Assembly (NCBI GenBank): GCA_963811225.1
Contig: CAWEQO010000004.1
Coordinates: 300,762-364,761, forward strand
Length of the DNA stretch: 64,000 nucleotides
From: an uncultured Chloroflexia bacterium
Lineage (GTDB): Bacteria; Chloroflexota; Anaerolineae; Anaerolineales; Anaerolineaceae
Direction of reading: 5' to 3'
The translations under genes were made by a program, and so were the position numbers. This document shows, piece by piece, positions 3,455 to 51,066 of the stretch; the first letter of the stretch is position 1; every line of letters starts with the position of its first letter. Under the pieces are notes generated by a model, which was not told the origin of the DNA, did not search any database, and saw only the letters and a list, made by a program, of their open reading frames with translations.

Positions 3455-4405
3455 CTAATGCAGCTCGCCGTCTGTACATGGGCAGATCAGCTCGATGGCA
3501 TGCGGCACGATCTCGATGATGACTTGCTCGCAGCCCTCGCTAATCTCCTCACCGTCTGCATGCACGGGCAGCTGTCCAGCGATTGCCCGCACGGTTACTC
3601 TCTCTGTACGGCAGAACTTGATCGCAGGGTGGCCGAACTGGCTGCCCTGCAAGAAACGAGGGATCAGCTGCCAGATGACCGAGGGAGGAACTTCATCGGC
3701 GATGACCACGTCGAACAGGCCGTCGTTTGGGGCTGCCTGGGGCGCCATCATAAAGCCGCCCGCCATGCGCCGGCCGTTCATAATCGAGACCATCAAAGAA
3801 GGCTGCACGAAGGATTCACCCCCCAAATCGATCTTGACCGTAGGAGCTTCGAAGTAGCGGTAAATGGTCTGTATGGCAGCGATCAGGTAACCGGCAAAAC
3901 CGCGCAAGCGTTTCTGGCTTGCAACGAAACTGACCACGGCATCGAAACCGATTCCGACCCCGTTACCAAAGTAGCGCCCTTCCGGGTACTGTCCGCCGCA
4001 CAGAAGGCCGATGTCTACCCAGCGCGTTTCGCGTTCCGCCAGGATCTTAATGCTCTTGCGAAAGTCGAGCGGCAAGCCCATGCCGAAGGCGAAGTCATTG
4101 CCCCCGCCGATGGGGATGATGCCCAGCGCCGCCGTTCCGACCCCGGCCTGCCGAGCGCGGATAATGCCGTTAATGATCTCATTGGTGGTGCCGTCTCCGC
4201 CGACCGCGATCAGGGTGTCGAAGCCTTCCAGAATGGCAGACTCGGCGATGTCGGCGGCGTGGAAGGGGAACTCGGTGCAAACCAGATCGTATCCGATGCC
4301 ATACTTGCTCAGGGCTTCCTCGACAGCCGGAATCGCTCGCCTGGCTGCGCCTCTGCCTGCGGTTGGATTGACGATCACTTTATAGCGGTTGGCGTCATCT
4401 CTCAT
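3455..4405 (-). CDS. Diacylglycerol kinase family lipid kinase (YegS/BmrU-like)
   Basis: KVIVNPTAGRGAA ... LIAVGGDGTTNE matches the DAGK catalytic-domain signature. Confidence 0.85.
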   Translation of the reverse strand: MRDDANRYKVIVNPTAGRGAARRAIPAVEEALSKYGIGYDLVCTEFPFHAADIAESAILEGFDTLIAVGGDGTTNEIINGIIRARQAGVGTAALGIIPIGGGNDFAFGMGLPLDFRKSIKILAERETRWVDIGLLCGGQYPEGRYFGNGVGIGFDAVVSFVASQKRLRGFAGYLIAAIQTIYRYFEAPTVKIDLGGESFVQPSLMVSIMNGRRMAGGFMMAPQAAPNDGLFDVVIADEVPPSVIWQLIPRFLQGSQFGHPAIKFCRTERVTVRAIAGQLPVHADGEEISEGCEQVIIEIVPHAIELICPCTDGELH

Positions 4406-4559
4406 CGTAAATCTACCTGAATTGTATGGATTGGGCCGTCTGACAGCGTGAAAATTATAGCACCGGCGATTGATGATGGCAAAACCTACCTCATATAACC
4501 CAGGGCGCCGGTAGAAGTTGCGCCTGCAAGGGTCATACCCCAGTCACCCCAAAAGCGGA

Positions 4560-4589
4560 TTGACTTTCACCCCCGGCTCGCACTATTAT
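4560..4589 (+). promoter_or_regulatory. Sigma-70-like promoter candidate for the six-gene operon
   Basis: TTGACT (4560..4565), an 18-nt spacer, then TATTAT (4584..4589). It lies 44 nt upstream of the ATG at 4633, which has a GGGAGG Shine-Dalgarno at 4618..4623. Confidence 0.4.
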
Positions 4590-4632
4590 GTAAATGGTAG
4601 AGTTTGTCTTTTTTATAGGGAGGAATCTCAAT

Positions 4633-6099
4633 ATGTTCGCCGTGCATGCGTTTTCTCAGCAAGACCCACAGTGGAAAGAGAAAAAGCTCGGCCTCAGCAA
4701 AGAGCTGACGATTGGGCAGTTCGGCTGCCTGCTGACCTCTATTACGATGGTATCCAATGGATTCGGTTACAGCGAAACCCCGGCTTCCTTAAATGACAAA
4801 ATGGCCGCGGCAGGCGGCTTTGTGGGCGGCCTGATCCGGCCCACCACAGTCTCGAACGTGCTCCCCGGCGTTCGTTATCAAAAGCGCATCCAATGCAACA
4901 ACCCGCCTGCGCCGTTATCGGAGATCGATGCGGCCCTAAGCGCGGGGATGCCGGTAATCGTCAAGGTGGACGCATCCCCCGCCGATGGTGTGCAGGATCA
5001 CTGGATCGTCGTGGTGGGCAAGGCAGACGGAGGTGATTACTGGGTCCAGGATACCTGGCGCTTTCCCACCGAGGCGAAATTGATCTTGATCACCAGCCGG
5101 TATGGCTTTGGGCGCAAACCGAACGAAATCATCAAGGATTCCCTCTTCTACGAGGGCACACCGCGCCCGGATGCCAAAGGCAGCACGACTGTTCCTGCGC
5201 CGGTTGTGGTGGCCCCTCGCAGCGGTCCAAAGCCCATTCCTGCCAACGCATTAAATGTCTACGTCACCGCCGACAGCCTTGCTCTCCGCGAGCAGCCCTT
5301 CATTGAGAACAACATCATGCGCCGTCTGCCGATCCAGACCAGGCTGATCGTGCTGGAACCGCCGGAAGAGGCGCAGAAGAAGATCGGGGTGGACAACCAG
5401 TGGTTGGAGATCGAGGAGCCCGTGCGCCATGAGCAAGGCTATGTGGCGGCCTGGTACGTCTCGATGACCACGCCCGAGGTTCCAGATATCCCCGCTGCGC
5501 CTGACGGGACAGCAACCCAACCCCAGCAGCCCAGGCCTGAGGGCTTCGTGGTGTACGCTTCGGGCGATAACCTGGCCGTGCGCAGTAGTCCGATGATCGG
5601 GAATAACTTGCTCAAGCGCGTGCCGGTCAACACGCAATTTATTGCGCTCGACTCAGAATACTCGGCGAAACAGAAGTTCGGCAAAGAGGGCCAGTGGCTG
5701 AAGGTGCGCGATATTTCAGGGGATGAGGGCTATGTGGCTGCCTGGTGCCTGTCGCTGTACGAGTTTACCCCACCGCTGGGGCCTGTCCCGGCGACACCGA
5801 CCCCGCCTTCGGCCACCATCACGGCGGCGGTGAATGGATCCGGCCAACTGATCGTGCGGACCACCGTATCGGACCTGGCGTTCCGCTCGCAGCCGGTCAT
5901 CCTGGGTTCCACGCTGATCAAACGCCTGCCGCTGTCGACCGAGCTGCTGGCGATCGAACCGGTCAACGAGGCTGCGGCGAAGATCGGGGTGGTGAACCAG
6001 TGGATCCAAGTGCGTGATATTCAAGGGAATGAAGGCTATGTCGCAGCCTGGTACGTGGTGAAGAGTCCAAAATCATCGCTATCAGAGCAAACCGGGTAG
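4633..6099 (+). CDS. Papain-fold C39-like cysteine peptidase fused to three SH3b repeats, no signal peptide
   Basis: N-terminus FSQQDPQW..GQFGCLLTSITMV (Cys32) and DHWIVVVG (His123) resemble the Peptidase_C39_2-type Gln/Cys/His arrangement. Three repeats of about 70 aa each end in GYVAAW(Y/C)(V/L), which is SH3_3-like. Start set at the ATG with the GGGAGG SD; the ATG at 4594 lies at the predicted transcription start site. Confidence 0.75.
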   Translation: MFAVHAFSQQDPQWKEKKLGLSKELTIGQFGCLLTSITMVSNGFGYSETPASLNDKMAAAGGFVGGLIRPTTVSNVLPGVRYQKRIQCNNPPAPLSEIDAALSAGMPVIVKVDASPADGVQDHWIVVVGKADGGDYWVQDTWRFPTEAKLILITSRYGFGRKPNEIIKDSLFYEGTPRPDAKGSTTVPAPVVVAPRSGPKPIPANALNVYVTADSLALREQPFIENNIMRRLPIQTRLIVLEPPEEAQKKIGVDNQWLEIEEPVRHEQGYVAAWYVSMTTPEVPDIPAAPDGTATQPQQPRPEGFVVYASGDNLAVRSSPMIGNNLLKRVPVNTQFIALDSEYSAKQKFGKEGQWLKVRDISGDEGYVAAWCLSLYEFTPPLGPVPATPTPPSATITAAVNGSGQLIVRTTVSDLAFRSQPVILGSTLIKRLPLSTELLAIEPVNEAAAKIGVVNQWIQVRDIQGNEGYVAAWYVVKSPKSSLSEQTG

Positions 6100-6137
6100 A
6101 ACTGCTGCAGCAAGACAGGGCTGAAAGAAGGAGGCCC

Positions 6138-8237
6138 ATGAGCACAACTGCCGATCTTGAAATTGGCTTGCATCGTTATGATAGCAAGCAGTATGTCGTG
6201 GAGTTCCGCTTCAGCCCTCCAAACAGTGAGGGAGACATCCGCCTGGGGCAGAGCGACGTGATGACCGCTCAATTCGATTTTACGAAATTGAGCTCGCTCA
6301 TCTATGATTTACAGGAATACGGTAAGCTGCTGACGGCCGGGTTATTCTCCGACTCGGATGTCAAGTCTGCCTTTGCCCAGGCCTTCACAGCCGCCCAGTC
6401 GAATAGTACTCCCCTGCGCGTGCAGCTGCTGATCGGCCCGAGCGCCCCCGAGCTGCACGCGCTGCATTGGGAAACGCTGCGCGACCCCGCCGACGGCTCA
6501 CCCCTATGTACCAACCAAAATATTTTGTTCTCGCGCTACCTGAGCAGCCTGGATTGGCGTCCGGTGCGCCTGCGTCCCAAGCAGCAGTTCCGGGCCTTAC
6601 TGGTGGTGGCCAACCCGGAAGACCTGTCCGAGTTCGATCTCAACCCAGTCGATGTGCCGGGTGAGACCGGGCGTGCCAAAGCTGCTATGGAAAACGTGGC
6701 AGTCGATACGCTGCCGGACGAGCAAGGGGCGCGAGCGACGCTCAAGAACATCATCGGGCGCCTGGACGATGAGGATTACGACGTACTGTACCTGGTTGCT
6801 CATGGGGCGCTGATCAAGGACGAAGCCTGGCTGTGGCTGGAAGACGATGAGGGCTGCGTGGCCCGCACGGCAGGCAGCGATCTGGTCATGCGGCTCAAGG
6901 AGCTGGAGCAGCGGCCGCGCTTGATTGTTTTAGCGTCTTGCCAGAGCGCGGGCAAGGAGGATGCAGGCGCCGGCCGGCAGGGTGAAGCCCTGGCAGCCCT
7001 GGGGCCGCGCCTGGCCGAGGCAGGCATTCCGGCGGTGCTGGCCATGCAGGGCAACATCAGTCTCGAGACGGTCGCCGGCTTCATGCCGGAGTTCTTCAAG
7101 CAGCTGACCGACGACGGGCAGATCGACCGGGCGGCAGCGGTGGCGCGCGGAACGGTGCGCGAGCGCAGCGATGCCTGGATGCCGGCGCTGTTCATGCGCT
7201 TGCGCAGCGGCCGGATCTGGTACCTGCCGGGCTTCGGGGAGCAGCGCACGGATTTCGAAAAATGGCCCTCGCTCTTGCAGCGCATCAGCGATGGGCAGTG
7301 CACGCCTATCCTTGGTCAGGGCTTGACCGAGCCGATCATCGGCTCGCTGCACGATCTGGCCCGCCGCTGGGCCGAGAACTATCACTATCCCATGGCGCCT
7401 TACGAACGCGAGTCTTTGCCGCAAGTGGCCCAATACCTGACGATCAACCAGGACCCCAGCTTTCCCTTAGACACCCTTAAGAAGTACTTGCGCCAGGAAC
7501 TGCTGCAGAAGTTCGGGGATGATTTGCCGCCCGAGCTGGCGAAACCGAATTCGGCGCTGGACGATGTGCTGGATGCGGTGGGACGCAAGCGCTGGAAGGA
7601 CTCCCCGCAAGATCCATATCAGGTGCTGGCGCATTTACCCTTGCCGGTCTACATCACCACCACCTACAACCATTTGATGGTGGCGGCGTTGAAGGACGCC
7701 GGGAAAGACCCGCAGATGGTGGTGTGCCCCTGGAATGAGTATATTCAGCAGCCCAAATCGATCTACAACCGTGAGCCGAATTACTATCCCACCTGCCAGC
7801 GCCCGCTGGTCTACCAGCTGTTCGGCAGCCTTTCTGTCCAGGATTCGGTGGTGCTCACTGAGGATGATTACTTCGATTTCTTGATTGGGATCACCGGCAA
7901 CAAAGATCTGATCCCCCCGGTTGTGCGGGCTGCCCTGGCGAACACGGCCTTGTTGTTCCTCGGCTTCCAAATGGACGAGTGGAACTTCCGGGTGCTGTTC
8001 CGCAGCATCCTGGCTCAACAGGGCAGCGGACGCCGAGACCGCTACACCCACATTGCCGCCCAAATTGAGCCGGAAGAGGGACGGCTGCTTTCCCCAATCA
8101 ACGCGCAGCGCTACCTGGAAAATTATTTCAAAACCGAGTACATCAGCATCTTCTGGGGGAGTGCGGATGACTTTATCAAGCAGCTTTGGCAGAACTGGCA
8201 GCAGTACGGCCCAGGAGAATGCCATGACGATGCATGA
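6138..8237 (+). CDS. CHAT (caspase-like clan CD) protease fused to a C-terminal SIR2_2-like domain
   Basis: CHAT dyad: YLVAHG (His222) and LIVLASCQSAG (Cys268), preceded by LHWETLRDP. The C-terminal half follows the SIR2_2 motif order: ILGQGLT (Gly-rich loop), VYITTTYNHL (vs TTNYD), LVYQLFGSL..SVVLTEDDY (vs K-L-H-G-S..vlT..dY), LLFLGFQMDEWNF (vs GyS..D). GGAGG SD at 6129..6133. Confidence 0.8.
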   Translation: MSTTADLEIGLHRYDSKQYVVEFRFSPPNSEGDIRLGQSDVMTAQFDFTKLSSLIYDLQEYGKLLTAGLFSDSDVKSAFAQAFTAAQSNSTPLRVQLLIGPSAPELHALHWETLRDPADGSPLCTNQNILFSRYLSSLDWRPVRLRPKQQFRALLVVANPEDLSEFDLNPVDVPGETGRAKAAMENVAVDTLPDEQGARATLKNIIGRLDDEDYDVLYLVAHGALIKDEAWLWLEDDEGCVARTAGSDLVMRLKELEQRPRLIVLASCQSAGKEDAGAGRQGEALAALGPRLAEAGIPAVLAMQGNISLETVAGFMPEFFKQLTDDGQIDRAAAVARGTVRERSDAWMPALFMRLRSGRIWYLPGFGEQRTDFEKWPSLLQRISDGQCTPILGQGLTEPIIGSLHDLARRWAENYHYPMAPYERESLPQVAQYLTINQDPSFPLDTLKKYLRQELLQKFGDDLPPELAKPNSALDDVLDAVGRKRWKDSPQDPYQVLAHLPLPVYITTTYNHLMVAALKDAGKDPQMVVCPWNEYIQQPKSIYNREPNYYPTCQRPLVYQLFGSLSVQDSVVLTEDDYFDFLIGITGNKDLIPPVVRAALANTALLFLGFQMDEWNFRVLFRSILAQQGSGRRDRYTHIAAQIEPEEGRLLSPINAQRYLENYFKTEYISIFWGSADDFIKQLWQNWQQYGPGECHDDA

Positions 8238-11200
8238 TGGAACCCTACCGCCCAACCCTTATGTGGGGCCGCGCTCATTTCAGACCGGCGAGAAGATGTA
8301 TGGCCGCGACACGGAGGTGCGCAGGCTGCTCGACCTGCTGATCGCCGAGCGTATCATGGTCCTGCACTCTCCTTCCGGCGCGGGAAAGAGCTCGCTGATC
8401 CAGGCCGGATTGATCCCACGCCTGGAAACCGAGGGGTTCCACATCTTCCCAACCGTGCGCATTAACCTGGATCTGCCCTCCGGCTGCCGTGACCGCGCCG
8501 ATTGCAACCGCTATGCCTTCAGCGCGCTGATGTCGTTGGAAGAAGCCCTGGGCGAAGAACATAAGCATCCGGTGGATCAACTGACCGGCTTAACGTTGGA
8601 GGCGTATCTCTCGCAGCGTGAGGCGCCGCAGGATGAGCCGGCTTCGAAATTGCTGATCTTTGACCAGTTCGAGGAGATCCTGACGGTCGCCCCAACCGAC
8701 CAGGAAGGCAAAGCGGCCTTCTTCAAGCAGCTGGGGGCGCTGCTGCGCGATCGCAAGTACTGGGCGCTGTTTGCCATCCGCGAGGACTTCATCGCCGCGA
8801 TCGACCCATACGTCCGCCCGGTGCCGACCCGCCTGAACAACCGCTTCCGCCTGGACTTCCTGGGCGTGCATGCGGCCCTGCAGGCCATCCAGAAACCGGC
8901 ACAGGTGTCGGGTGTATCCTTCAAGGAGGATGCGGTCGAGAAGCTGGTCAACGACCTGCGCCAGGTGCGCATCCAGCAGGCGGACGGCAGCATGCAGGTG
9001 GAGTCGGGGCCGTACGTAGAGCCGGTGCAGCTGCAGGTGGTGTGCTACAACCTGTGGCAGCACCTGCCGCCCGGGACCAAGGAGATCACCCTGCGCCAGA
9101 TCACGGACGTGGGGGATGTGGACGAGTCGCTGGCGAGTTACTATGCGGAAAAGGTTAGCGAGGCGGCGCAGGCCTGCAGCTTGCCCGAACGCCGGGTGCG
9201 GGACTGGTTCGAACGACATTTGATCACCAAGCAGGGCATCCGCGGCCTGGTGCAGATGGGCTCGGAGCGGAGTGAAGGGTTGGATAACCACGCCATCCGA
9301 ATGCTGGAGAACGATCACCTGGTGCGCTCCGAGAAGCGCCTGGGATCCACCTGGTTCGAGCTGGCGCATGACCGCCTGATTGACCCGGTTCGCAAGAACA
9401 ACGCCGCCTGGATGCAGCAAAACCTCAACTTACTGCAGCGCCAGGCCGCCATTTGGATCCAGCAGGGCCGCCCGGACAGCCTCTTGCTGCATGGCGAGGA
9501 TCTGGAAAACGCCGGCCGCTGGGCAGAGGCTAATCCCAATGACCTGACGGAGGAAGAGAAAGACTTCCTGGCAGACTGCCAGGAGGCCGAAGAGCACCGG
9601 AAAGCGCAGATCGAGCAGCAGCGGTTGGAGCAGGAGCGCCGCGAGCAGTCCTTGAAGCTGGAAGCAGCCGAGAAGCTGGCGGGCTCCGAGCGGAAGCGCG
9701 CCGAGGAACAGTCGAAAGCGGCGGTGTCGCTGCGCCGGCGGGCGATCTTCCTGGCGCTGGCGCTGGTGCTGGCCCTGGGCTTGGCGGGTGTGGCCGGGTA
9801 CTACTACCAGGATTCCAACAAGAATTTCCGGGATGCTCAGTCCCAGGCGGTCACGGCGGACTCGGCCCGCAAGCTGGCCGAGAGCGCTAACGAAACGTCG
9901 GTGGTGAATGCGAGCATTGCTCAGGCGGCCAGCAACCTCTCCAACGCCGAAAGGCTGAAGGCGGAGGCGCAGAAAGGGTTGGCGGACATCGCTTCCACCC
10001 AGGCCATCGATCAGAAGAACACCGCCGTGGTGGAGTCACAGCTGCGCGGCACGGCCCAAGCCAAGGTGACCCGTTCGCGGGCGGATTCCCTGGCTTCGGT
10101 GACCTATATGCTGGCGTCGCAGCCGGACCTGCGCGACCTGCTCAGCGTGGAGGCTTTCCGCATCCTGGATACCTCGCAGACCCGGCTGGCGCTGCTGTCG
10201 TCCCTGTTGTCGGGCCAGGACGTGCTGTTTAATTCGCTGGGCTTCGGCATCCCGCCGGAAGTCTCTACGGTGACTCAGATGAGCATTCAGGGCGACGGCC
10301 AGTACGCCGCCTGGGGAAACAACGATGGAGAAGTCGTTTTCTACAGCGTCAACCAGCAGGAAGCGCTGTGGCGCAAACGGGCGCACTCGGGCGCGGTCCC
10401 GGCGGTGGCGCTGTGCAGCGCAAACGGCGAGCAGGTGCTGGCAACCGGTGGGGTAGACAATTACGTGCGGGTGTGGAACCCGATGGACGGCTCCATCCGC
10501 TGGAGCAACCGCACCCCAAACATTATCGCAGCCATCTCGATGAGCGGGGATTGCTCACAGATGGCGGTGGCAGCCGGGGCGGCGGTGGAAATCTACAACA
10601 CCCAAAGTCGCGCGCTGCTGCACCGGATCAACCAGCCGCAGGTCATTTCAAGTGTCGCTATGTCTGAGGACGGCAAACAACTGGCTGTTGGACTGCCGAA
10701 CGGGCAGATTGTGATCTACCTTACAGACAGCAAAGACACTTTCACTCTCGGATATCAAAGCGCGGCGGTGATCAGCCTGGCCTGGCTGCCGGACAACCTC
10801 ACGCTGGCCTCGACCGGTCACCAGCAGACGGTGAACCTGTGGAACACTGAGCTGCGCAAACCCGTGAAGACCTACCGGAAGGATATTGTGGGCAAATCCG
10901 ACAGCATCGCCATTAGCCCGGACGGCAAGCTGTTAGCAGCCGGGGAGGGGCGAGGCGAGGTCCAGGTGTGGGACATGGAAAGCGGCGAAATGTTTAGCTC
11001 GCAGGTGCATACCAATGACGTGGAGCACGTCGCCTTTGCCAATAACCAGGGTAAGCTGATCCTGGCATCGAGTGGAGGGGACCGGCGCGTGATTTTGACC
11101 GAGCTGCGCGTCCAGCAGCGTCTTAGCCGGACCGTGAACAACCAGGGACCATCTTCGATGGCGCTGGCGTTCAACCGGGATGGAAATTTGCTGAGCGCCG

Positions 11201-12057
11201 GCCCGCAGGACAATAAGCTGGTGGTGTTGAACATCGACGGTAAAACGATGGCCGAACCCGGCGTGCAGGTGGAGATGAGCCGCATGGCGCTCAGCGCCGA
11301 CGGCTCGACCCTGGCCGTGGGCGGCAAGGATGGCTCGATTGCAGTGGTGGCCGGTCTGGACACGCCCGATCCGGCCCCGCTGCCAGTGATCCAGGCGGCG
11401 CCCGCAGCGATTGACGGACTGGCATTCAGCCCGAACGGCAAGACGCTGGCCTCGATCTACTGCGAGGGGGGAAGTCTGGTAAACGGCCAGCCCGCTTGCG
11501 CGAAAGGCGTAATCCAGTTCTGGGACGTGGCCAGCGGCAAGTCGAAGCACTCTGATTACACCTACACGGACATTCGCTTGACTTCGCTGGTCTACTCGCC
11601 GGACGGATACACCCTGGTATGCGGCAGTAACGGCTCCTTGATCTCTTGGGATTTGACCAACGGTAAGCCGCGTATGCTGAGCAACGTTTTCGGCGGGAAC
11701 GCCAGCTGGATCTCCAGCATGGCCTTCAGCCCGGACGGCAAGACGCTGGCGGTCGGCAGCCAGGATGCCTGGGTGAGCCTGATAGATTTGGCCTCGGGCG
11801 CCAGTTACAGCCCACTGTTCACCACCCCGGGCCAGGTATTCAGCCTGACCTATGATGCGACGGGCGGCTACCTGTATTCCGGTCAAAGCGACGGCACGGT
11901 CCTGCGCTGGGACGCCAGCCCGAAGCTGTGGGTGGACACGGCCTGCCAGTTCGCCGGGCGCAACATGGCGGAGTACACCGAGTGGGACCGCTACTTGCCC
12001 GGCGATCCATACCGGCTTACCTGCCCACAGTACCCCTCTGGGGCGGCGGGATCTTAA
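8224..12057 (+). CDS. STAND-type P-loop NTPase, coiled coil, TM helix and a roughly 14-repeat WD40 array
   Basis: [42 protein letters not shown] (Walker A, K55) and LLIFDQFEE (Walker B, D147). Helical/coiled-coil region [20 protein letters not shown], then hydrophobic helix [22 protein letters not shown] (nt 9742..9807). Repeats such as [20 protein letters not shown] and GVIQFWD run to the C-terminus. The ATG at 8224 overlaps the upstream stop by 14 nt. The ORF-track start at 7921 lies inside the upstream gene and was rejected. Confidence 0.85.
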
Positions 12058-12065
12058 TCAAAAGG

Positions 12066-13997
12066 ATGGCGAGGATGAGCGCAGACTTTCTATATTTCAA
12101 CGGCGTGGATGGGGCCAGCGGAGACTACTTGCTGCCGCCGATGTCACCCGCCGACGTGAGCAAGGTGGCCACCGGCGCGCCTCTGGACGAGGCTCAGCTC
12201 AAAGAGCTGAAATGGTGGCACGAACGCTCGACCAGCGGGAACTATGGAGTCAAGGAGGGTGTGGATCCCAAGGACCTGTCTCAGGCGGGGTGGGGCGTTA
12301 TTTTCGCCCACAACGCCGATCCGGCTGTGCGAGATGCGCTAAAAGAGCTGCTCGACTGGCGCAAGCAGCAAGCCGGGAATTATTACCGTGAATACAGTGG
12401 GGCCGAGGGCTACCGTCCGGGCGAGTCGAAGCCGGATTTTTTGGCGCGCCACGGCGCGGGGCCCGGCCCGGCAGATCCAGAGAAGGTGCCGTATTATCTG
12501 CTGATCGCCGGCGATCCGGAGGCCATCCCCTACCGCTTCCAATCCCAACTGGACGTGCAGTACGCGGTGGGGCGCATCCACTTTGACCGGATCGAGGATT
12601 ACGCCGTGTACGCGCACAGTGTGGTGGAAGCCGAGAAGCAGGGATTATCACTGCCGGCTCAGGCGGCTTTTTTCGGCACGTGCAACACGGACGACCCGGC
12701 CACCAACATGAGCGCCGGTGACCTGGTGACGCCGCTGTCCGAGAGCATGGGCAAGGAGAACGAGGGCTGGAAGGTGGATTCGTGGGTCGGGGAGAAAGCC
12801 ACCAAAGCGGACCTGGCGGCGCTGATGGGCGGCGCTCAAACCCCGGCTTTGCTGTTTACCGCCAGCCACGGCATGGGTTTCCCAAACGGCGACCCGCGCC
12901 AGCTGTCTCATCAGGGGGCTTTGTTGTGTCAGGACTGGCCGGGGCCTAAAGCCTGGAAGAAGTCGATCCCCGAGGACTTCTATTTTTCAGCCGATGATAT
13001 CGGCGAGGACGCCCGCCTGTTTGGGATGATCGCCTTTCACTTCGCCTGTTACGGGGCGGGCACACCCCGCAGCGACGAGTTCGCCCAGCAGGCTTTCCGC
13101 AGCCGGGCGGATATCGCTCCGCACGCCTTCCTGGCGCGCCTGCCACAGCGCATTCTGGCGCACCCGAAAGGTGGGGCGCTGGCGGTGATGGGCCATGTCG
13201 AGCGAGCCTGGGGCTATTCCTTCAGTTGGGGCAAAGCCGGGCGACAGCTGGCGGTGTTCGAAAGCGCCCTCAAACGCCTTGCGGACGGGTTCCCGGTGGG
13301 CTCCGCGTTCGAGAAATTCAATGAGCGCTACGCCGAGTTGTCGTCGGACCTGTCGGTGGAGCTGGAGGATATCCAGTTTGGGAAGAAGGCGGACCCCTAC
13401 AATCTGGCAGGGATGTGGACGGCCAACAATGACGCCCGCAATTACGTGGTGCTGGGTGACCCGGCGGTGCGGTTGATGGTTGGAACGGGGGACGCCCCCA
13501 CGAGGCGGCCGGCGCTCGAGATTCAAGGGCCGGTTATCGAGGCGGCGGATGCGAGCGCTGCGGCCACGATCATCGCACCCGGCATGGGAACGCCGCCGCC
13601 GGCCGGGGTGGACTATGGCCTGGTGGACAACTTCCGTCAGGTGCAGGCCAACGTGAGCGAGACGCTGCAGCAGTTTGTGAACCGGCTGGGGACGTTCCTG
13701 GGCGAGGCCCTGGAGGATGCTTCCAGTTTGGAGGTGGGTACATACGTCAGCGATGACATGACCCAGGTCAAGTACGAAAAGGGTCAGTTCAGCGGGGCGA
13801 AACTGCGAGCCTATACCCACATCAAGGTCGACGGTGATACGCTCGTTTGCGTCCCTGAAGAGGATGGCGAGCTAGACCTGGCCTTGTGGAACGTGCACGT
13901 CGAGATGGTCAAACAGGCGCAAGCCAACCGGATGGAATTCCTGCGAACGGTGGTGTCGGCGGCCACCGGACTGGTCGACCTGATCAAGCCGGGTTAA
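12066..13997 (+). CDS. Gingipain/C25-like clan-CD cysteine peptidase with an unknown C-terminal domain, no signal peptide
   Basis: His-Gly/Ala-Cys dyad [10 protein letters not shown] (His268) and [12 protein letters not shown] (Cys328). C25-like landmarks are [22 protein letters not shown] and [12 protein letters not shown]. The ATG at 12066 lies 8 nt after the upstream stop. Confidence 0.7.
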
Positions 13998-14016
13998 CCT
14001 GGCAGGAGGAGTCTGG

Positions 14017-14766
14017 ATGGCGCATGAGGAGTTCGCTTTACCGAGTGCCCTGAGCGCCTGGGAAACATCCCCGGCTGGGGATGAAGCGGTTTCCTTTGAG
14101 GTTGGGGAAGCCACGGAGAAGATGCCGGTCTGGCGCACAGCCCTCCCAGACAATCCCGAAGAGGCCGAGGCTCAGTTGGAGCGGGTCGAGCGTCAGCTGC
14201 AGACCGCACAGATCGCACTGGGTGAGGTCTCGCAGCGTGTGGAGACGCTGGCAGCCGGCGGGCGCGGAGCGGCTTCGTTTGGCGTGGAGCAGCTGCCGGA
14301 GGCCGAAGCCGAGCTGCTCGCCCTGTTGGCGTCGGTGGGCGCCGAGCAGACCGGATTAAGCTTTGGCATTGCCGGTGTTTCATTGAGCGACTTCGAGCAG
14401 GCCCAGGAGTTCTTCGCTTCTTCGCTGCAGCGATTGTCGAGCGCGATCACCCGACTGGCTCTTGTAGAGACGAGCGTAGGCGGTACAGCGGTCGGCAGGA
14501 CGATGATCGATTGGAGCGGCGATCTGGAGACGGCCTGGCTGCCGCCGCTGCTGCCCGAGCGCCAACGTCAGCACGAACGCTCGCTGCAGAACGCGCTGGC
14601 GTCGCGCACGCTGCTGATGCGCATGCTGTTCACCTCGGCGCAGAGCGCGGCCAAGATTGCCGCGGCGCTGGCGGTTCCAGGCGGTGCAATCATGGCGCTC
14701 CCCGCAGCATGGAAATTCATCATGCGAATCATGCAAGAAATGGAGGAAATACAACATGGCGAATGA
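14017..14766 (+). CDS. Hypothetical coiled-coil protein with a hydrophobic/amphipathic C-terminal segment
   Basis: Helical heptad-like stretch EEAEAQLERVERQLQTAQIALGEVSQRVETL. C-terminus reads LLMRMLFTSAQSAAKIAAALAVPGGAIMALPAAWKFIM. A GGAGG-like SD (caggaggag) lies upstream. I recognise no family. Confidence 0.6.
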   Translation: MAHEEFALPSALSAWETSPAGDEAVSFEVGEATEKMPVWRTALPDNPEEAEAQLERVERQLQTAQIALGEVSQRVETLAAGGRGAASFGVEQLPEAEAELLALLASVGAEQTGLSFGIAGVSLSDFEQAQEFFASSLQRLSSAITRLALVETSVGGTAVGRTMIDWSGDLETAWLPPLLPERQRQHERSLQNALASRTLLMRMLFTSAQSAAKIAAALAVPGGAIMALPAAWKFIMRIMQEMEEIQHGE

Positions 14767-15085
14767 GTTCGAGAATGCAGTGAAGAGTGCGGCAGCGACC
14801 GTGGCGAAGTACGTGGATGACGCCGCTGAGCTGACGGTGGAGACAAAGTTTGTCGAGGCGGGGCAGCAGGGCTTTAGTGATTTCAACTCAGCCATGCCCG
14901 CCGCCCGCACCATTATTCGCCTAGACGGCGATTGCGAAGTGGTGGCGCCAATGCGCAAGACGGAGAATGGCGTGCTGGAGGTGGACACCGGGCTGTTCGA
15001 GTTACACCAGAAGAACGTGCAGACCGCGATCGACTACCGGGCACGGATCCTGGATGCGCTGCTCGGCGTGATCAAACGGGGCTGA
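14756..15085 (+). CDS. Small (109 aa) protein resembling the C-terminal domain of the C25-like peptidase
   Basis: The ATG at 14756 is preceded by GGAGGAAAT and overlaps the upstream stop by 11 nt. By-eye alignment to residues 550..643 of the 12066..13997 product: [83 protein letters not shown]. Confidence 0.6.
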   Translation: MANEFENAVKSAAATVAKYVDDAAELTVETKFVEAGQQGFSDFNSAMPAARTIIRLDGDCEVVAPMRKTENGVLEVDTGLFELHQKNVQTAIDYRARILDALLGVIKRG

Positions 15086-15166
15086 GAATTTATCCGAGGG
15101 ACCGGAATAGGCGGAATAACGCCCCACTCCGGCTCCTCGGATAGATTCATCGGGCAGCGGTTTATA

Positions 15167-15215
15167 GTAGGGGCTGCGAAACAATCGCAGCCCCTACGTT
15201 TATTGATTCTTTTTG
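15167..15215. terminator. Intrinsic terminator closing the six-gene operon (convergent with the DUF305 gene)
   Basis: GTAGGGGCTGCGA-aacaa-TCGCAGCCCCTAC (15167..15197) followed by GTTTATTGATTCTTTTT. A weaker hairpin lies at 15092..15142. Confidence 0.6.
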
Positions 15216-27731: not shown

Positions 27732-29435
27732 TGCCCACATTCCGCACCTTGGAATAGCGGATTTTGGGAATATCGGGTAATCTTGGGGGATGAACCCCGA
27801 AACGCGCTATGAAACACAACGGATGGATCACCTGGGGATTGTGGCTGGGATCTGCCAGGAGATCGGGCTGATCGAAGAAATCGACCGGCAAGTTGGGCCC
27901 AGCGAACAAAAGGTGAGTGTTGGGCAAGGAACGCAGGCAATGGTACTGAATGCTCTGGGCTTCAGCAGCCGGGCATTGTATTTGATGCCGGACTATCTGC
28001 ACAACAAACCGGTGGATTTACTGATTGGTCCGGGTCTGGTTGCCGAAGATTTCAACGATGACAGCCTGGGACGCAGCCTGGAGGCACTTTACGCTAAAGG
28101 AGTGACCGAGGTATTTGCCCAAGTGGCGGCGCGAGCCTTAGGGGTGTACGGGATTGAACACCATTTTGTGCATGTGGACAGCAGTTCTTTTCACTTGCAT
28201 GGGCAATATGAAATCGAAGAGCCGAACAAGGAAGCGATCACAATCACGGAAGGCTACTCGCGGGATCACCGTCCAGATCTCAAGCAGGTGGTGGTGCAGT
28301 TGATCACCAGCCAGAAATCCGCACTGCCGGTTTGGTTGGAAGTATTGAGCGGCAACAGCAGTGATAAAGAGACCTTTCCCCTCAGCGTAGAAGCCTACAA
28401 CAAGCAGCTTGGAGGGGGTGAAACGCCATACTATGTCATGGACAGTGCGGGCTATGCGGCAGACAACCTGAAAACGTTGAAGGACATGCTGTGGTTGATG
28501 CGGGTGCCGGAGACGCTTGCGGAAGCCAAGCGGCTCGTGCGGGAGAGCGAAAAGGCAGACATGCAGTGTCTGACAGAAGGTTACTGGGGCAAAGAGGTTG
28601 CAGTTACCTATGGCGATATTGAACAGCGCTGGTTGGTGGTTTTCTCCCAGGCCGCTTATGAGCGCGAACTGCATACCTTGACCAAAAACCAGGAAAAAGA
28701 ACGTCAAGCGGCTGAGAAGCAGTGGCACAAGTTGGGTGGGCAGACCTTCAACTGCCAGGAAGACGCCGAAACCGCTGCAAAACAATTCAACCAGGGCTGG
28801 AAGTTCCACCAGGCAGATGCGGAAGCTGCCCCAATCACTCAATATGCCCGGCGCGGACGTCCCTCGGCTGAAGATAAGCCAGAGATTGTGGGGTACGGTT
28901 TGACAGGGAGCATTTCCGCCGACCCAGAGCGGGTCGAAGCGGCGAAACGCACCTTGGGCAAGTTCATCATCGCCACGAATGAACTCGACCCTCAAAAATT
29001 ATCCCCCATACAAATACTTGAGAACTATACCGACCAGGGCGTTTCGGTCGAGCGCGGTTTTCGCTTTCTCAAAGATCCGCTTTTCTTCGCTGATAGTCTA
29101 TTTCTCAAGAAACCCGAGCGGATCATGGCGTTGATGATGATTATGGGACTGGCACTGCTCATCTATGCTCTGGCAGAACGCCAACTTCGCCTGGGGTTGG
29201 AGGAAAGTAATGAAAAGATCCCCGATCAGAAGGGCAAACCGACCGCAACTCCCACTATTCGTTGGGTTTTTCAGACTTTTGAGGGAATTGATATTCTGTC
29301 CGTCTGGGTGAATGGGCAGCCAACGCTCCGTCAGGTACTCAACCTAAGACCCGTTCACCAGCAAGTTATTCGTTTGTTCGGTTCCCGTGTCCGTAATTGC
29401 TATTTCCTCGATCCTTGAGGTGCGGAATGTGGGCA
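27732..29435 (+). mobile_element. IS1634-family (IS4-like) insertion sequence
   Basis: 18-bp perfect terminal inverted repeats, TGCCCACATTCCGCACCT (27732..27749) and AGGTGCGGAATGTGGGCA (29418..29435), bracket a single transposase ORF. No unambiguous target-site duplication is visible. Confidence 0.8.
27790..29418 (+). CDS. IS1634-family transposase
   Basis: MDHLGIVAGICQEIGLIEEIDRQVG..GQGTQAMVLNALGF..R.LYLMPDY is the N-terminus typical of IS1634/IS4-type DDE transposases. The size (542 aa) fits, and the ORF is bracketed by inverted repeats. Confidence 0.85.
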   Translation: MNPETRYETQRMDHLGIVAGICQEIGLIEEIDRQVGPSEQKVSVGQGTQAMVLNALGFSSRALYLMPDYLHNKPVDLLIGPGLVAEDFNDDSLGRSLEALYAKGVTEVFAQVAARALGVYGIEHHFVHVDSSSFHLHGQYEIEEPNKEAITITEGYSRDHRPDLKQVVVQLITSQKSALPVWLEVLSGNSSDKETFPLSVEAYNKQLGGGETPYYVMDSAGYAADNLKTLKDMLWLMRVPETLAEAKRLVRESEKADMQCLTEGYWGKEVAVTYGDIEQRWLVVFSQAAYERELHTLTKNQEKERQAAEKQWHKLGGQTFNCQEDAETAAKQFNQGWKFHQADAEAAPITQYARRGRPSAEDKPEIVGYGLTGSISADPERVEAAKRTLGKFIIATNELDPQKLSPIQILENYTDQGVSVERGFRFLKDPLFFADSLFLKKPERIMALMMIMGLALLIYALAERQLRLGLEESNEKIPDQKGKPTATPTIRWVFQTFEGIDILSVWVNGQPTLRQVLNLRPVHQQVIRLFGSRVRNCYFLDP

Positions 29436-38552: not shown

Positions 38553-38625
38553 GGGCCTGTAGCGCAGTTGGGAGCGCGCTTCAATCGCACTGAAGAGGTC
38601 GAGGGTTCGAATCCCTCCAGGTCCA
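38553..38625 (+). tRNA. tRNA-Ala (anticodon CGC)
   Basis: Hand-folded cloverleaf. Acceptor GGGCCTG/CAGGTCC with a G3:U70 pair, D arm GCGC-AGTTGGGA-GCGC, anticodon arm CTTCA-ATCGCAC-TGAAG, T arm GAGGG-TTCGAAT-CCCTC, discriminator A. No CCA is encoded. Confidence 0.9.
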
Positions 38626-38674: not shown

Positions 38675-38747
38675 GGGCCCATAGCGCAGTTGGGAGCGCG
38701 CCTCAATGGCATTGAGGAGGCCGAGGGTTCGAATCCCTCTGGGTCCA
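38675..38747 (+). tRNA. tRNA-Ala (anticodon GGC)
   Basis: Acceptor GGGCCCA/TGGGTCC with a G3:U70 pair, anticodon arm CCTCA-ATGGCAT-TGAGG, and the same D and T arms as the neighbouring tRNA. Confidence 0.9.
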
Positions 38748-48663: not shown

Positions 48664-51066
48664 ATGCACAAAAAAATATGGAGTTCCATTTTATTGGGGA
48701 TGATCTTGCTGATGGTTGGTTTCCAGCCGGCGCTTGCAGACGGCATCATCATCCCGCCAGAACCACCGGTCCCTTGCCGGGACTGCCCGCCTCCGCACTT
48801 CCCCCGCCCGATCTCACAACTCGAAATCAAATATCACCACGTCGATGTCAAGATCGTCGATCAGATTGCCATCACCCACGTCGATCAGGTGTTTTACAAC
48901 CCCAACGACTACCCGGTGGAGGGCACCTACATCTTCCCGCTGCCGCAGGACGCGGCCGTGAGCGATTTCACCCTGTGGGTGGATGGCAAGCCGGTCAAAG
49001 GTGAGGTGTTGGATGCCCAGCAAGCCCGCCAGAAGTATGAAGAGATCGTGCGCAGTCTGAAAGACCCGGCCCTGTTGGAGTATATCGGCCAGGGTGCGGT
49101 ACAGGCCAACGTTTTTCCAATCCCACCCAAGGGCGAGCGGCGCATCGAGCTGCAGTATCAGCAGGCGCTGACCGCCGACAACGGCCTGGTGCGCTACGTC
49201 TACCCGCTCAACACCGAGAAGTTCTCAGCCAAGCCCTTGCAGAGTGTGCGCGTGACCGTTGATATCGCCGCCGGGCAGTCGATCCGGGCGGTGTATTCGC
49301 CTAGCCACACCGTCACGGTCGAGCAGCCGGACGAGCGCCATGCCACCATCAGCTACGAGGACAGCAGCATCACGCCGGACGCAGACTTCACCCTGTACTA
49401 CTCGTTGGGTGAGAGTGAGGCCTTCCACCTGTTCAGCTACCGCGATCCGGCCGATCCGGTCGATGCGGATGGATTCTTCATGCTGCTGCTGGCGCCTAAA
49501 CCCGGCCAGCCCAGCCAGACTGTCAGCAAGGACGTGCTGCTGGTATTGGACCGGTCGGGCAGCATGGAGGGCGAGAAGTTCCAGCAAGCTCAGGCAGCGT
49601 TGAAGTATATCTTACGGCACCTCAACCCAGAGGACCGTTTTTACCTGACCACCTTTAGCTCCAACACCGCAGCCTACGCCAATCGCTTGCGCCCGGCCAG
49701 CGAGGCGGACGAAGCCATCGCCTGGGTGAACCACAGCGCCGCAGCCGGAAGCACCGACATCAACCGGGCGCTGCTGGAAACCGCAGCCGTGGTGGACAAG
49801 GAGCGCCCTACCTACCTGATCTTTCTGACCGACGGCCTGCCCACCGAGGGCATCATCGACAGCCAGGAGATCCTGGACAACTTCCAGCGTGCGGCCTCTA
49901 CCAACTTGCGCCTATTCGCCTTCGGCGTGGGCTACGACGTGGACACTTTCCTGCTCAACTCGCTCACGCGCGCCCACCACGGGCTGAGCGCCTACGTTCA
50001 ACCCGGTGAGAATCTGGACGAAACTGTGTCGAGCTTTTACGCTCGCATCAGCACCCCGGTGCTGACCAACCTTTCGCTCGACTTTGGCAAACTGTCCACC
50101 TACGATATCTATCCCAGCCCGCTGCCCGACCTGTTCGACGGCTCGCAAGTGATCGTGGTGGGACGCTACCGCGACGGTGGGACCGCGAACGTCACCCTGA
50201 CGGGACAGGTCAACGAGATGCTGCAGACCTTCCCCTTCAACGAGCAGACCTTCACCACAGACAGCCGGGATGAGACCGGCGCACTGGCCGGGCTGCCGCG
50301 CCTGTGGGCCACGCGGAAAATCGGCTACCTGCTGGAGCAGGTGCGCCTGGACGGGCCCAACCAGGAGACCGTCGACCAGATCGTCAAGCTAAGCATCCGT
50401 TACGGCATTGTCACGCCCTACACCTCTTACCTGGTCACAGAGGATATGCCATTGGGGGCGGCCAACCAGCGCCAGTTGGCGCAGGACACGTTCCAGGAAC
50501 TGCAAGCAGCCCCGAATGAAGTGACCGGTCGCGGCGCGGTGCAAAAAGCCGCCGGAGAGGGCGCGCTGTCGCAAGCGGAAGTAGCCCCGCCGGTGATCGC
50601 TGCCATCCCCAACGAGGGCGAGCAGGAGGTAGTGGCTCAGACCGTGCGCATGGCGGCCTCGCGCACCTTTGTACTCAGCAACGGAGTGTGGATGGATACC
50701 GCCTATGACCCCGACACGATGAAGACCATCAAGGTGGCTTTCCTTTCGCCCGAGTACTTCCAACTTGCGCAGTCGCGCGCCGACGTTGGCGCGGCCCTTG
50801 CACAGGCCGAGCGGGTGATCGTGGTGGTGGACGGTAAAGCCTATGAGGTGGTTGGCGAGGGCGAGCAGACCGGAGCGGTCGAGATGCCGTCCACTGCGGT
50901 GCCCCAACCCAAAGCCAGCGCAGCTCCCACTCAGGCGCCCGCAGCCACTCAGGCCCCGGTCAACCTGCCGGTCAAGCCGGTGGAGCCGGTGACGCCGAAC
51001 GCCTGCCTGGGAATCCTGCTGCCGCTGGCGGCGGTGGTGTCCGTCAAAGTATTCCTGCGGAAGTAA
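48664..51066 (+). CDS. Secreted VIT-domain plus von Willebrand factor A-domain protein with a C-terminal anchor
   Basis: Signal peptide MHKKIWSSILLGMILLMVGFQPALA. VIT-like region VDVKIVDQIAITHVDQVFYNP..EGTYIFPLP. vWA MIDAS motif LLVLDRSGSMEG. C-terminal hydrophobic helix LGILLPLAAVVSVKVFLRK. Confidence 0.85.
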   Translation: MHKKIWSSILLGMILLMVGFQPALADGIIIPPEPPVPCRDCPPPHFPRPISQLEIKYHHVDVKIVDQIAITHVDQVFYNPNDYPVEGTYIFPLPQDAAVSDFTLWVDGKPVKGEVLDAQQARQKYEEIVRSLKDPALLEYIGQGAVQANVFPIPPKGERRIELQYQQALTADNGLVRYVYPLNTEKFSAKPLQSVRVTVDIAAGQSIRAVYSPSHTVTVEQPDERHATISYEDSSITPDADFTLYYSLGESEAFHLFSYRDPADPVDADGFFMLLLAPKPGQPSQTVSKDVLLVLDRSGSMEGEKFQQAQAALKYILRHLNPEDRFYLTTFSSNTAAYANRLRPASEADEAIAWVNHSAAAGSTDINRALLETAAVVDKERPTYLIFLTDGLPTEGIIDSQEILDNFQRAASTNLRLFAFGVGYDVDTFLLNSLTRAHHGLSAYVQPGENLDETVSSFYARISTPVLTNLSLDFGKLSTYDIYPSPLPDLFDGSQVIVVGRYRDGGTANVTLTGQVNEMLQTFPFNEQTFTTDSRDETGALAGLPRLWATRKIGYLLEQVRLDGPNQETVDQIVKLSIRYGIVTPYTSYLVTEDMPLGAANQRQLAQDTFQELQAAPNEVTGRGAVQKAAGEGALSQAEVAPPVIAAIPNEGEQEVVAQTVRMAASRTFVLSNGVWMDTAYDPDTMKTIKVAFLSPEYFQLAQSRADVGAALAQAERVIVVVDGKAYEVVGEGEQTGAVEMPSTAVPQPKASAAPTQAPAATQAPVNLPVKPVEPVTPNACLGILLPLAAVVSVKVFLRK

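Follow-up and report, generated by a model that had tools for sequence, protein, structure and literature searches.

What might six tightly packed genes for a receptor-like NTPase, two caspase-fold peptidases and a putative cell-wall hydrolase do together in a bacterium? The question is raised by positions 4560-15215 of the 64,000-nucleotide stretch of contig CAWEQO010000004.1 (uncultured Chloroflexia bacterium) that we analyzed, hereafter the window. This region holds six plus-strand open reading frames (ORFs), G1 to G6, at 4633-15085. An earlier reading made from the letters alone, which we call the original prediction, proposed an undescribed system built around a STAND NTPase, with three cysteine-protease folds and a SIR2 NADase effector. 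We conclude that the operon is probably a regulated cell-death ('conflict') cassette of multicellular or filamentous bacteria, in which proteolysis would gate suicide or lysis. We give this reading a probability of roughly 0.55.

A conserved gene set around G4 and G5

The six genes are co-directional and lie between a promoter-like site and a terminator-like hairpin (Table 1), as had been proposed, and the proposed junctions are also found in the sequence. G1 and G2 are separated by a 38-nt gap containing AGGAGG, G2 and G3 overlap by 14 nt, an 8-nt gap precedes the G4 start at 12066, a 19-nt gap separates G4 from G5, and G5 and G6 overlap by 11 nt. Purine-rich sequences resembling Shine-Dalgarno sites are clear before G1, G2, G5 and G6, and weaker before G3 and G4. 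G1 likely starts at ATG 4633, which is preceded by GGGAGG; the earlier first ATG, at 4594, is less plausible. The database copy of G4 (P0001, 640 amino acids, aa) starts at ATG 12075, three codons after 12066. Either start is possible, and the later one makes the G3-G4 gap 17 nt.

G4 belongs to a large family: the protein collection contains over 7,500 of its homologues, their hosts cover six phyla or more, and PADLOC 2.0 lists no such system. When 185,579 species-representative genomes were scanned by pattern, 525 G4 relatives emerged. Our locus counts rest on the best 79 loci among these, onto which the G1-G6 proteins and family hidden Markov models (HMMs) were mapped. The 79 loci belong to Chloroflexota (48), Cyanobacteria (14), Acidobacteriota (9), Desulfobacterota (5), Actinomycetota (1) and Latescibacterota (1), and one is unclassified. 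The closest G4 relatives occur in Anaerolineales metagenome-assembled genomes (MAGs), with identities of up to 69-77%.

G4 and G5 are the core of the cassette. G4 carries a C-terminal domain in 56 of the 79 loci, and G5 lies after G4 in 52 of these 56. G5 is absent from all eight loci whose G4 truly lacks the C-terminal domain; a ninth locus flagged as lacking it (L017) is a frameshift artefact, and both G4 and G5 are present there. A stand-alone G6 occurs in 34 of the 56 loci. For CHAT, NTPase, SIR2-like and G1-type genes we counted the 34 loci whose flanks extend for 8 kb or more on each side (long-flank loci). CHAT is found in 27 of these and the nSTAND1 NTPase in 25 (about 75-80%). Fusions between the two were read from Pfam matches to full ORFs, because an early NTPase HMM also picked up CHAT from fusion proteins. 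Anaerolineae have the CHAT/NTPase pair upstream; in Cyanobacteria, Acidobacteriota and Thermomicrobiales it is downstream.

Flanking genes and gene order vary between loci, although in the closest relative, L001 (G4 identity 76-77%), the cassette lies at the same downstream flank and is syntenic. The homologous loci agree with the proposal that a STAND NTPase and caspase-fold proteases form the center of a multigene system whose genes are conserved together and whose distribution is patchy. Conservation across loci with differing flanks excludes a universally conserved housekeeping locus. It likewise excludes the idea of a fortuitous cluster of six genes with unconnected functions, to which we assign practically no weight. 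That idea could appeal to the fact that G1 is not widely co-conserved. However, the junctions overlap or are very short, many phyla have the same gene set between other flanking genes, components are fused to one another, and three of the genes have a domain in common.

Some loci show replacements or additions. In L061 (12206-13564) and L062 (12113-13480), a calcineurin-like metallophosphoesterase gene replaces G5 and G6; it stands beside a G4 without the C-terminal domain and upstream of the CHAT-SIR2-like and NTPase genes. Two Acidobacteriaceae loci (L064, 7066-9393; L071, 7134-9473) have a Ser/Thr kinase-TPR gene and a 127-aa ORF upstream of G4 and a shortened G5-like ORF after it, with no CHAT or NTPase gene within 10 kb.

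We also observed the following at individual loci. A Chloroflexaceae MAG (L053, 7797-15002) has G4 in three tandem paralogous copies, with a single G5 after them. In a complete Anaerolineales chromosome (CP070639.1, L006), a masked run of Ns at about 9036-9140 lies immediately upstream of G4. This run probably hides the CHAT and NTPase genes, which would explain their apparent absence. Directly upstream of the cassette in L001 (1-1939) are genes for an EcoRI-type methylase and a GmrSD/HNH type IV restriction-like protein, and in the window their position is occupied by the HemN, YkuD and diacylglycerol (DAG) kinase genes. Pairs resembling MNT-HepT (nucleotidyltransferase/HEPN) lie beside the cassette in L002 (15821-16451, assigned by Pfam families) and between cassette genes in L072 (4251-5035) and L082 (8221-8885), where ORF starts were read by eye.

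Receptor, proteases and shared domain

G3 is predicted to be a transmembrane (TM) receptor with an outward-facing WD40 sensor. Its NTPase module belongs to nSTAND1, a clade named by Kaur et al. 2021 (PMC8195603). The Walker A motif (GAGK55S) and the acidic residues of Walker B (LLIFDQFEE at aa 143) are intact. TM segments were assessed with a Kyte-Doolittle (KD) 19-residue window, which finds a single TM helix in G3 (Table 1). In homologues the helix is mostly just after the NTPase module (around aa 430-550), while some have it further downstream or have several. Among 24 G3 homologues, the mean number of K/R residues is 5.2 on the N-terminal side of the helix versus 2.6 on the C-terminal side. 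The conserved helix and the positive-inside rule thus suggest an N-in/C-out topology, with the NTPase in the cytoplasm and the WD40 repeats outside, rather than the cytosolic, Avs/Apaf-1-like sensing that the original prediction implied.

Divergence is about twofold faster in the sensor than in the NTPase: identities are 24-58% in the WD40 part versus 51-74% in the NTPase module. CHASE2 is an extracytoplasmic sensor domain. The cyanobacterial counterparts of G3 use CHASE2 instead of WD40, so that their sensor is extracytoplasmic as well.

In G2, the CHAT dyad H222 (VAHG) and C268 (ASCQ) is invariant in 28 homologues. CHAT adjoins, or is fused with, the nSTAND1 NTPase in related loci, and in Leptolyngbya and Pantanalinema a single CHAT-nSTAND1-CHASE2 protein partners G4-G5. 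These single proteins point to a direct partnership of CHAT and the NTPase.

The SIR2-like domain of G2 could suggest abortive infection in the manner of Avs or Thoeris, with SIR2 as the main effector that depletes NAD+ once the STAND sensor has fired. The domain has a good SIR2_2 score in Pfam (Table 1) and is matched by the ThsA models of PADLOC (E 7.8e-11), and its nearest solved relatives, ThsA and 7uxt, are NADase-type SIR2 proteins. However, in an alignment with these two, N112 of ThsA (TTNYD) is replaced by Thr in G2 (TTTYN), and H152 (KxHG) is replaced by Phe (QLFG). Mutant entries in PDB confirm that both positions are catalytic. Among the 28 members of the G2 SIR2-like family, Phe at the His position is invariant and the Asn position is variable. 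Moreover, the domain is found in only 15 of the 34 long-flank loci, while CHAT and G4-G5 persist, no TIR or ThsB match was found in the six proteins or their immediate flanks, and no Avs model matched. Given that the domain lacks the catalytic Asn and His, NAD+ depletion by G2 is unlikely, and we regard a SIR2-based effector mechanism as improbable. G2 warns against taking every SIR2_2 match as a NADase.

G4 is, by its residues and its modeled fold, most likely a gingipain-like clan-CD peptidase. Its Peptidase_C25 match in Pfam (24.7 bits, cut-off 23) extends over aa 363-470 and covers only the last 86 of 374 profile positions, and a profile search of PDB sequences with G4 found no gingipain. 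The dyad His268 (SHG) and Cys328 (ACYG) is invariant in 20 homologues. The top Foldseek matches of the AlphaFold model in PDB are to gingipain K (Kgp), 4rbm and 6i9a, with probability 0.99 and E 6e-4 but low TM-scores of 0.27-0.38. Membership in C25 is thus indicated by dyad and fold, with a weak profile. CHAT and C25 both have the caspase fold (clan CD), so that the three cysteine-protease folds of the original prediction become two. Otherwise its domain assignments (C39-like with SH3b, CHAT-SIR2, STAND with TM helix and WD40) hold in Pfam, with C25 marginal, and the residues that it named (C32 in G1, H222/C268 in G2, K55 in G3, H268/C328 in G4) are at the proposed positions.

Gingipains and other C25 relatives are classically secreted or surface proteases. 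This background could suggest that the peptidases mature, sort or control the quality of surface proteins under a membrane NTPase, with no death output. The membrane-embedded G3, the anchor-like tail of G5 (see below) and the partners with SH3b or peptidoglycan-binding domains would fit such a role. However, we found no N-terminal hydrophobic segment, which was our measure for signal peptides, in any of the six proteins, in agreement with the prediction. The proteases also have no TM segment, hence they are expected to be cytoplasmic. Unlike gingipains, G4 has no N-terminal hydrophobic segment, which argues for a cytoplasmic location, and its C-terminus is not the C-terminal domain of type IX secretion (T9SS CTD) but the domain described next. 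Secretion-system, sortase or substrate genes are not co-conserved with the cassette, and the combination of STAND, CHAT, shared adaptor and alternative effectors matches conflict systems instead (PMC7159879). A role in envelope-protein processing is therefore quite unlikely.

One alpha/beta/alpha domain is common to the C-terminus of G4, the middle of G5 (aa 125-210) and G6, which is a stand-alone copy of 109 aa. The original prediction related G6 to the end of G4 and spoke of an adaptor-like shared domain. Both proposals proved correct, and the domain is also present in G5. The relationship emerges in profile-profile comparison: hhalign relates the G6 family to the G4 domain (98.7%, E 1.6e-16) and the G5 family to G6 (92.5%, E 4.7e-7), whereas BLASTP of G6 against G4 is not significant (E ~2). 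Similar cross-matches are seen in related loci. All three copies follow the pattern helix, VET, (A/G)RT.I..DGD, H...V..A...R, helix. Pfam has no family for the shared domain, G5 or G6, even when all family members are scanned. The catalytic part of G4 is joined to its copy by a hypervariable linker (Table 1), in which a motif [DS][YF][GA][LV] occurs in 18 of 20 homologues (here DYGL at aa 516).

An exhaustive profile search found the shared domain in 624 proteins at E<=0.001 and in 293 at E<=1e-10. Among the 150 listed matches, the domain is mostly stand-alone, at about 110 aa, and is otherwise found at the C-terminus of longer proteins. One metagenomic protein, P0229 (2,675 aa), combines Trypsin_2, nSTAND1, a second P-loop region, four tandem shared domains and WD40. 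P0229 is a candidate single gene, and could be a chimera of assembly or gene calling. Three further candidates for new architectures (P0313, P0363 and P0367) were rejected as truncated fragments of G4.

G5 is a non-enzymatic coiled-coil protein of 249 aa with three disordered loops. In its AF2 model (pLDDT 76, pTM 0.73) these loops have low confidence, and each carries a near-invariant [VIL][SA]F motif; F27 is conserved in 50/55 homologues, F88 in 50/55 and F or Y116 in 53/55. Toward the C-terminus (aa 210-236), the chain turns back at PGG to form a helical hairpin whose hydrophobic character is conserved (median KD value 1.73 in the 55 homologues). Motifs and model make G5 a candidate latent membrane effector or membrane anchor, and it could be a tail-anchored scaffold instead of a membrane-active effector. 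When the G5 model was searched with Foldseek, neither PDB nor BFVD yielded a significant match. We set aside gasdermin, EACC1 and holin family membership, for which there is analogy but no sequence or fold support.

G1 has a Peptidase_C39_2 match (30.8 bits, cut-off 24) and an SH3_3 match in Pfam, and three SH3b repeats are visible in the sequence. The papain-fold residues Cys32 and His123 are present, and the N-terminus is not hydrophobic. The N-terminal papain-fold domain, the C-terminal SH3b repeats and the lack of a signal peptide amount to an endolysin architecture. G1 thus looks like a putative cell-wall hydrolase rather than a member of a protease cascade, as originally predicted, and it is an accessory component. 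A search of PDB sequences found nothing for G1. Other hydrolases stand in its place: M23-SH3b proteins in L055, L080 and L035, and, in two Desulfatirhabdium loci (L072 and L082), a GH108 lysozyme with PG_binding_3 that is fused to the shared domain. Three unrelated types of signal-less peptidoglycan hydrolase are therefore recurrently linked to the cassette.

Table 1. Features of the operon in the window, with the evidence for each
Feature	Position	Strand	Evidence or remark
Sigma-70-type promoter-like site, TTGACT-18-TATTAT (putative)	4560..4589	+	10/12; consensus match only
G1	4633..6099	+	Pfam and residues
G2	6138..8237	+	Pfam
CHAT domain of G2 (aa 89-344)	6402..7169	+	Pfam 103 bits, cut-off 24
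SIR2_2-like domain of G2 (aa 504-663)	7647..8126	+	Pfam 76.7 bits, cut-off 24.5
G3	8224..12057	+	Pfam, TM helix, topology
nSTAND1 NTPase module of G3 (aa 12-402)	8257..9429	+	Pfam PF20703, 122.3 bits, cut-off 27.1
Single TM helix of G3 (aa 505-528)	9736..9807	+	Kyte-Doolittle 2.53
WD40 beta-propeller sensor region of G3 (aa 681-1277, ~14 blades)	10264..12054	+	Pfam; predicted extracytoplasmic
G4	12066..13997	+	Pfam, dyad, model
Catalytic part of G4, gingipain/C25-like clan-CD peptidase	12066..13505	+	Pfam, dyad, Foldseek
Hypervariable low-complexity linker of G4	13506..13655	+	Alignment of homologues
C-terminal shared alpha/beta/alpha domain of G4	13656..13994	+	hhalign versus G6 family; no Pfam family
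G5	14017..14766	+	AF2 model, motifs, hhalign
G6 (109 aa)	14756..15085	+	Profile comparison
Intrinsic-terminator-like hairpin and T-rich tail	15167..15215	+	13-bp stem (15167-15197), 9 G-C pairs

A cell-death reading and its rivals

How could these components act together? The double WD40 propeller of G3 would sense an extracytoplasmic cue outside the cell. Ligand binding would then lead to NTP-dependent oligomerization of the cytoplasmic NTPase of G3, and the oligomers would activate the CHAT protease of G2 by proximity, with the SIR2-like domain of G2 as a non-catalytic regulatory or scaffold module. G2 would act on a triad of G4, G5 and G6 that is held together by the shared domain. In this triad, G4 would be a gingipain-like second-tier protease, G5 a latent membrane-active protein that is cut or released at its [VIL][SA]F loop motifs, and G6 a domain-only adaptor or decoy. 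Finally, membrane damage would give the signal-less G1 access to peptidoglycan, and the cell would lyse. The architecture fits a scheme that Kaur et al. 2020 and 2021 described (PMC7159879, PMC8195603) and that Evans et al. tested experimentally in other modules (10.1101/2025.11.14.688446): an NTPase is the switch, a caspase-fold protease is next, and a latent effector is set free through site-specific cleavage.

A tentative extension of this reading, which we consider possible but would not bet on, is an 'outside-in apoptosome'. Here the membrane-spanning STAND protein would read an extracellular ligand through WD40 or CHASE2 and fire a cascade of CHAT and then the gingipain-like protease, which would end in holin/endolysin-style, altruistic lysis of one cell of the filament. 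The shared adaptor domain, previously unrecognized, would stand in for a death fold, and G6, which consists of that domain only, would be a regulator. Candidate ligands would be phage contact, lysis products of a neighbor or a signal of wall damage.

What the analysis shows directly is the order of the genes, the domains and catalytic residues that they encode, the signals of topology, the homology of the shared domain and the conservation of the genes together. Several points weigh against the cell-death reading. Every step of the mechanism is one that we infer. The window locus and most of the others lie among ordinary chromosomal genes, without clear defence islands, and a G4 profile scan of IMG/VR viral contigs found no relative, so that a phage-borne origin is not supported. 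Across phyla, G4 retains 49-69% identity to the window copy in the 79 loci, which is unusually high for a component of an arms race. The C25 score of G4 barely exceeds the Pfam cut-off, and its AlphaFold model is of moderate quality (pLDDT 60.8). We did not detect the shared domain in the window's own G2 or G3. The hydrophobic tail of the window's G5 has a KD value of 1.69, which is borderline for a TM segment, and it may be a simple membrane anchor. Lastly, a G1-type gene is present in just 2 of the 34 long-flank loci.

Some of the same observations bear on whether the machinery has anything to do with immunity. It might instead serve developmental or stress-related autolysis or wall remodeling in filaments, triggered by signals from the envelope or from neighbors rather than by phage; examples would be necridium-like sacrificial cells, filament fragmentation and the release of public goods. 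The extracytoplasmic sensor, whether WD40 or CHASE2, is compatible with this idea, as are the mainly filamentous hosts (the 48 Chloroflexota, and the 14 Cyanobacteria, which are mostly heterocystous or filamentous), the very strong sequence conservation of G4 and G6, the location among housekeeping genes with a syntenic locus in the closest relative, and the recurrent peptidoglycan hydrolases. However, non-filamentous Acidobacteriota also carry the family, the sensor diverges fast, and restriction, type IV restriction or toxin-antitoxin genes adjoin some loci. In addition, the patchy distribution (525 matches in 185,579 species genomes) and the varying flanks and gene order are typical of horizontally moved accessory systems. 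The biological role could be anti-phage or kin-protective immunity or developmental autolysis; of the two, we give the purely non-immune reading the lower probability.

The surroundings of the operon in the window are as follows. Upstream are genes for a HemN-like radical SAM protein, a YkuD protein and a DAG kinase, and downstream are genes for DUF305, hemerythrin, LysM-CAP and SpoIIE proteins. More distant neighbors include RNase Y, LeuRS, a cytochrome bd oxidase and an insertion sequence (IS) element. The GC content of the operon is the same as that of its surroundings, and the hairpin at 15167-15197 is the strongest terminator-like candidate across the region. An Rfam scan found no regulatory RNA near the operon; its sole matches in the window are two plus-strand tRNA genes, at 38553-38625 and 38675-38747. 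On the minus strand, a promoter-like site (TTGCCA-17-TATAAT with extended TG, 11/12) at 4482..4454 faces away from the operon and toward the DAG-kinase-like gene at 3455-4405. Because of this opposite-facing site, the spacer at 4406-4632 looks like a divergent promoter region. The IS element, which lies some 12 kb beyond the operon on its downstream side, is a plus-strand transposase ORF with DUF4277 and DDE_Tnp_1 (27790-29418). An 800-aa protein with VIT and vWA domains is encoded on the plus strand at 48664-51066, after two genes for ABC-transporter ATPases. vWA proteins feature in other conflict systems of the Kaur type.

Comparison with known systems

How much of this cassette is already known? 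PADLOC models match it at the level of domains only (ThsA-type SIR2, SAVED_CHAT and a repeat model on the WD40 region), and no PADLOC model matches G1, G4, G5 or G6. No Avs or NLR model of PADLOC 2.0 matches G3, for which the sole match is HEAT-ARM_XIII on the WD40 region. PHROGs gave marginal matches only, and NCBIfam nothing useful. In literature searches on gingipain-like proteases in anti-phage defence and on this domain combination, we found the cassette nowhere described. The claim that the system is undescribed therefore stands for the cassette, but not for its principle, which had already been conceptualized (PMC7159879, PMC8195603).

That principle, namely an NTPase, a caspase-like peptidase and an effector coupled by shared domains in multicellular bacteria, is the concept of Kaur et al. 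(PMC7159879, PMC8195603). Their systems also pair nSTAND1-type STAND NTPases with caspase-superfamily peptidases, use effectors that attack peptidoglycan, and are enriched in filamentous Chloroflexota and Cyanobacteria. In their effector-associated-domain (EAD) systems, neighboring genes each carry a copy of one small domain, which is joined to a variety of effectors and to the NTPase. The shared domain described here behaves likewise, as it occurs in G4, G5 and G6, on the GH108 lysozyme of the two Desulfatirhabdium loci, and in four copies in P0229. Our cassette differs in that the shared domain matches no Pfam family and is not on the window's NTPase, and in having a predicted transmembrane receptor with an extracytoplasmic sensor. 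In the text and supplementary material that we searched for these papers, the gingipain-like protease, G5 and G6 do not occur.

Experiments on STAND-linked systems have shown that caspase-like proteases cut small, latent pore-forming proteins encoded beside them (EACC1, Pepco), and metallophosphoesterases are listed as a class of protease-associated effectors (10.1101/2025.11.14.688446). The modules of this preprint by Evans et al. 2025 (EACC1-caspase, Pepco-trypsin, MBL and alpha/beta-hydrolase) resemble our cassette in placing a cysteine protease beside a small non-enzymatic protein with a hydrophobic C-terminus, in the diversity of attached sensors, which include STAND NTPases, and in the metallophosphoesterase that is an alternative effector in sister loci. 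By contrast, our cassette has two proteases rather than one and an additional domain-only protein, and its cleavage step is only presumed. G5 is about twice the size of characterized EACC1 and has no sequence or fold match to models of the EACC1 or Pepco type. Neither G5 and G6 nor any other of the six proteins matched an EACC1, CATRA or CATASP family, although the presence of these models in the searched libraries is unverified.

Apaf-1 and the bacterial Apaf-1-like WD40 STAND proteins (PMC12803255) share with G3 an NTPase and a double WD40 propeller sensor. In both cases a caspase-fold protease is at, or fused to, the N-terminus of the NTPase, and the logic of a two-tier protease cascade, which is presumed here, is similar. 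However, G3 belongs to the nSTAND1 clade and not to the AP-ATPases, there is no CARD or Death-fold adaptor, and a TM helix lies between NTPase and propellers, hence the predicted outside-in sensing. If correct, our reading adds a transmembrane, extracellular-sensing branch to the biology of bacterial NLR/STAND proteins, which have so far been studied as cytosolic sensors of phage proteins. The gingipain-like second protease tier and the new shared adaptor domain would then provide a prokaryotic test-bed for initiator/executioner cascades and domain-only regulators.

Other comparisons are more limited. The Rossmann domain of G2 is of the SIR2_2 type and recognizably related to that of Thoeris ThsA, but differs from ThsA, DSR2 and other SIR2 NADases in the lost catalytic residues and in being dispensable in many cassettes. 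As regards bacterial gasdermin systems, G5 has no Pfam gasdermin match and no significant fold match in PDB. With respect to type III-E CRISPR, no cas-like domains occur among the neighbors scanned; CRISPR repeats were not explicitly searched. The papain-fold C39 domain of G1, with its Cys and His, resembles that of the Peptidase C39 bacteriocin-processing peptidases, but in G1 this domain is fused to three SH3b repeats, and no ABC transporter is encoded inside or beside the operon.

Phage holin-endolysin cassettes also encode a signal-less SH3b wall hydrolase together with a small membrane-active protein, for which G5 is the candidate here, and in both cases the membrane would have to be damaged before the hydrolase could get at the peptidoglycan. 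However, G5 has no sequence or fold similarity to phage proteins, we found no viral contig with a relative, and control would be exerted by an NTPase and proteases instead of by holin timing. The cassette offers candidate new membrane-active and cell-wall effectors. Its principle and the families nSTAND1, CHAT and SIR2_2 are known, while the cassette, which joins a predicted transmembrane nSTAND1 receptor to a gingipain-like second protease and a new shared domain, appears to be a new combination.

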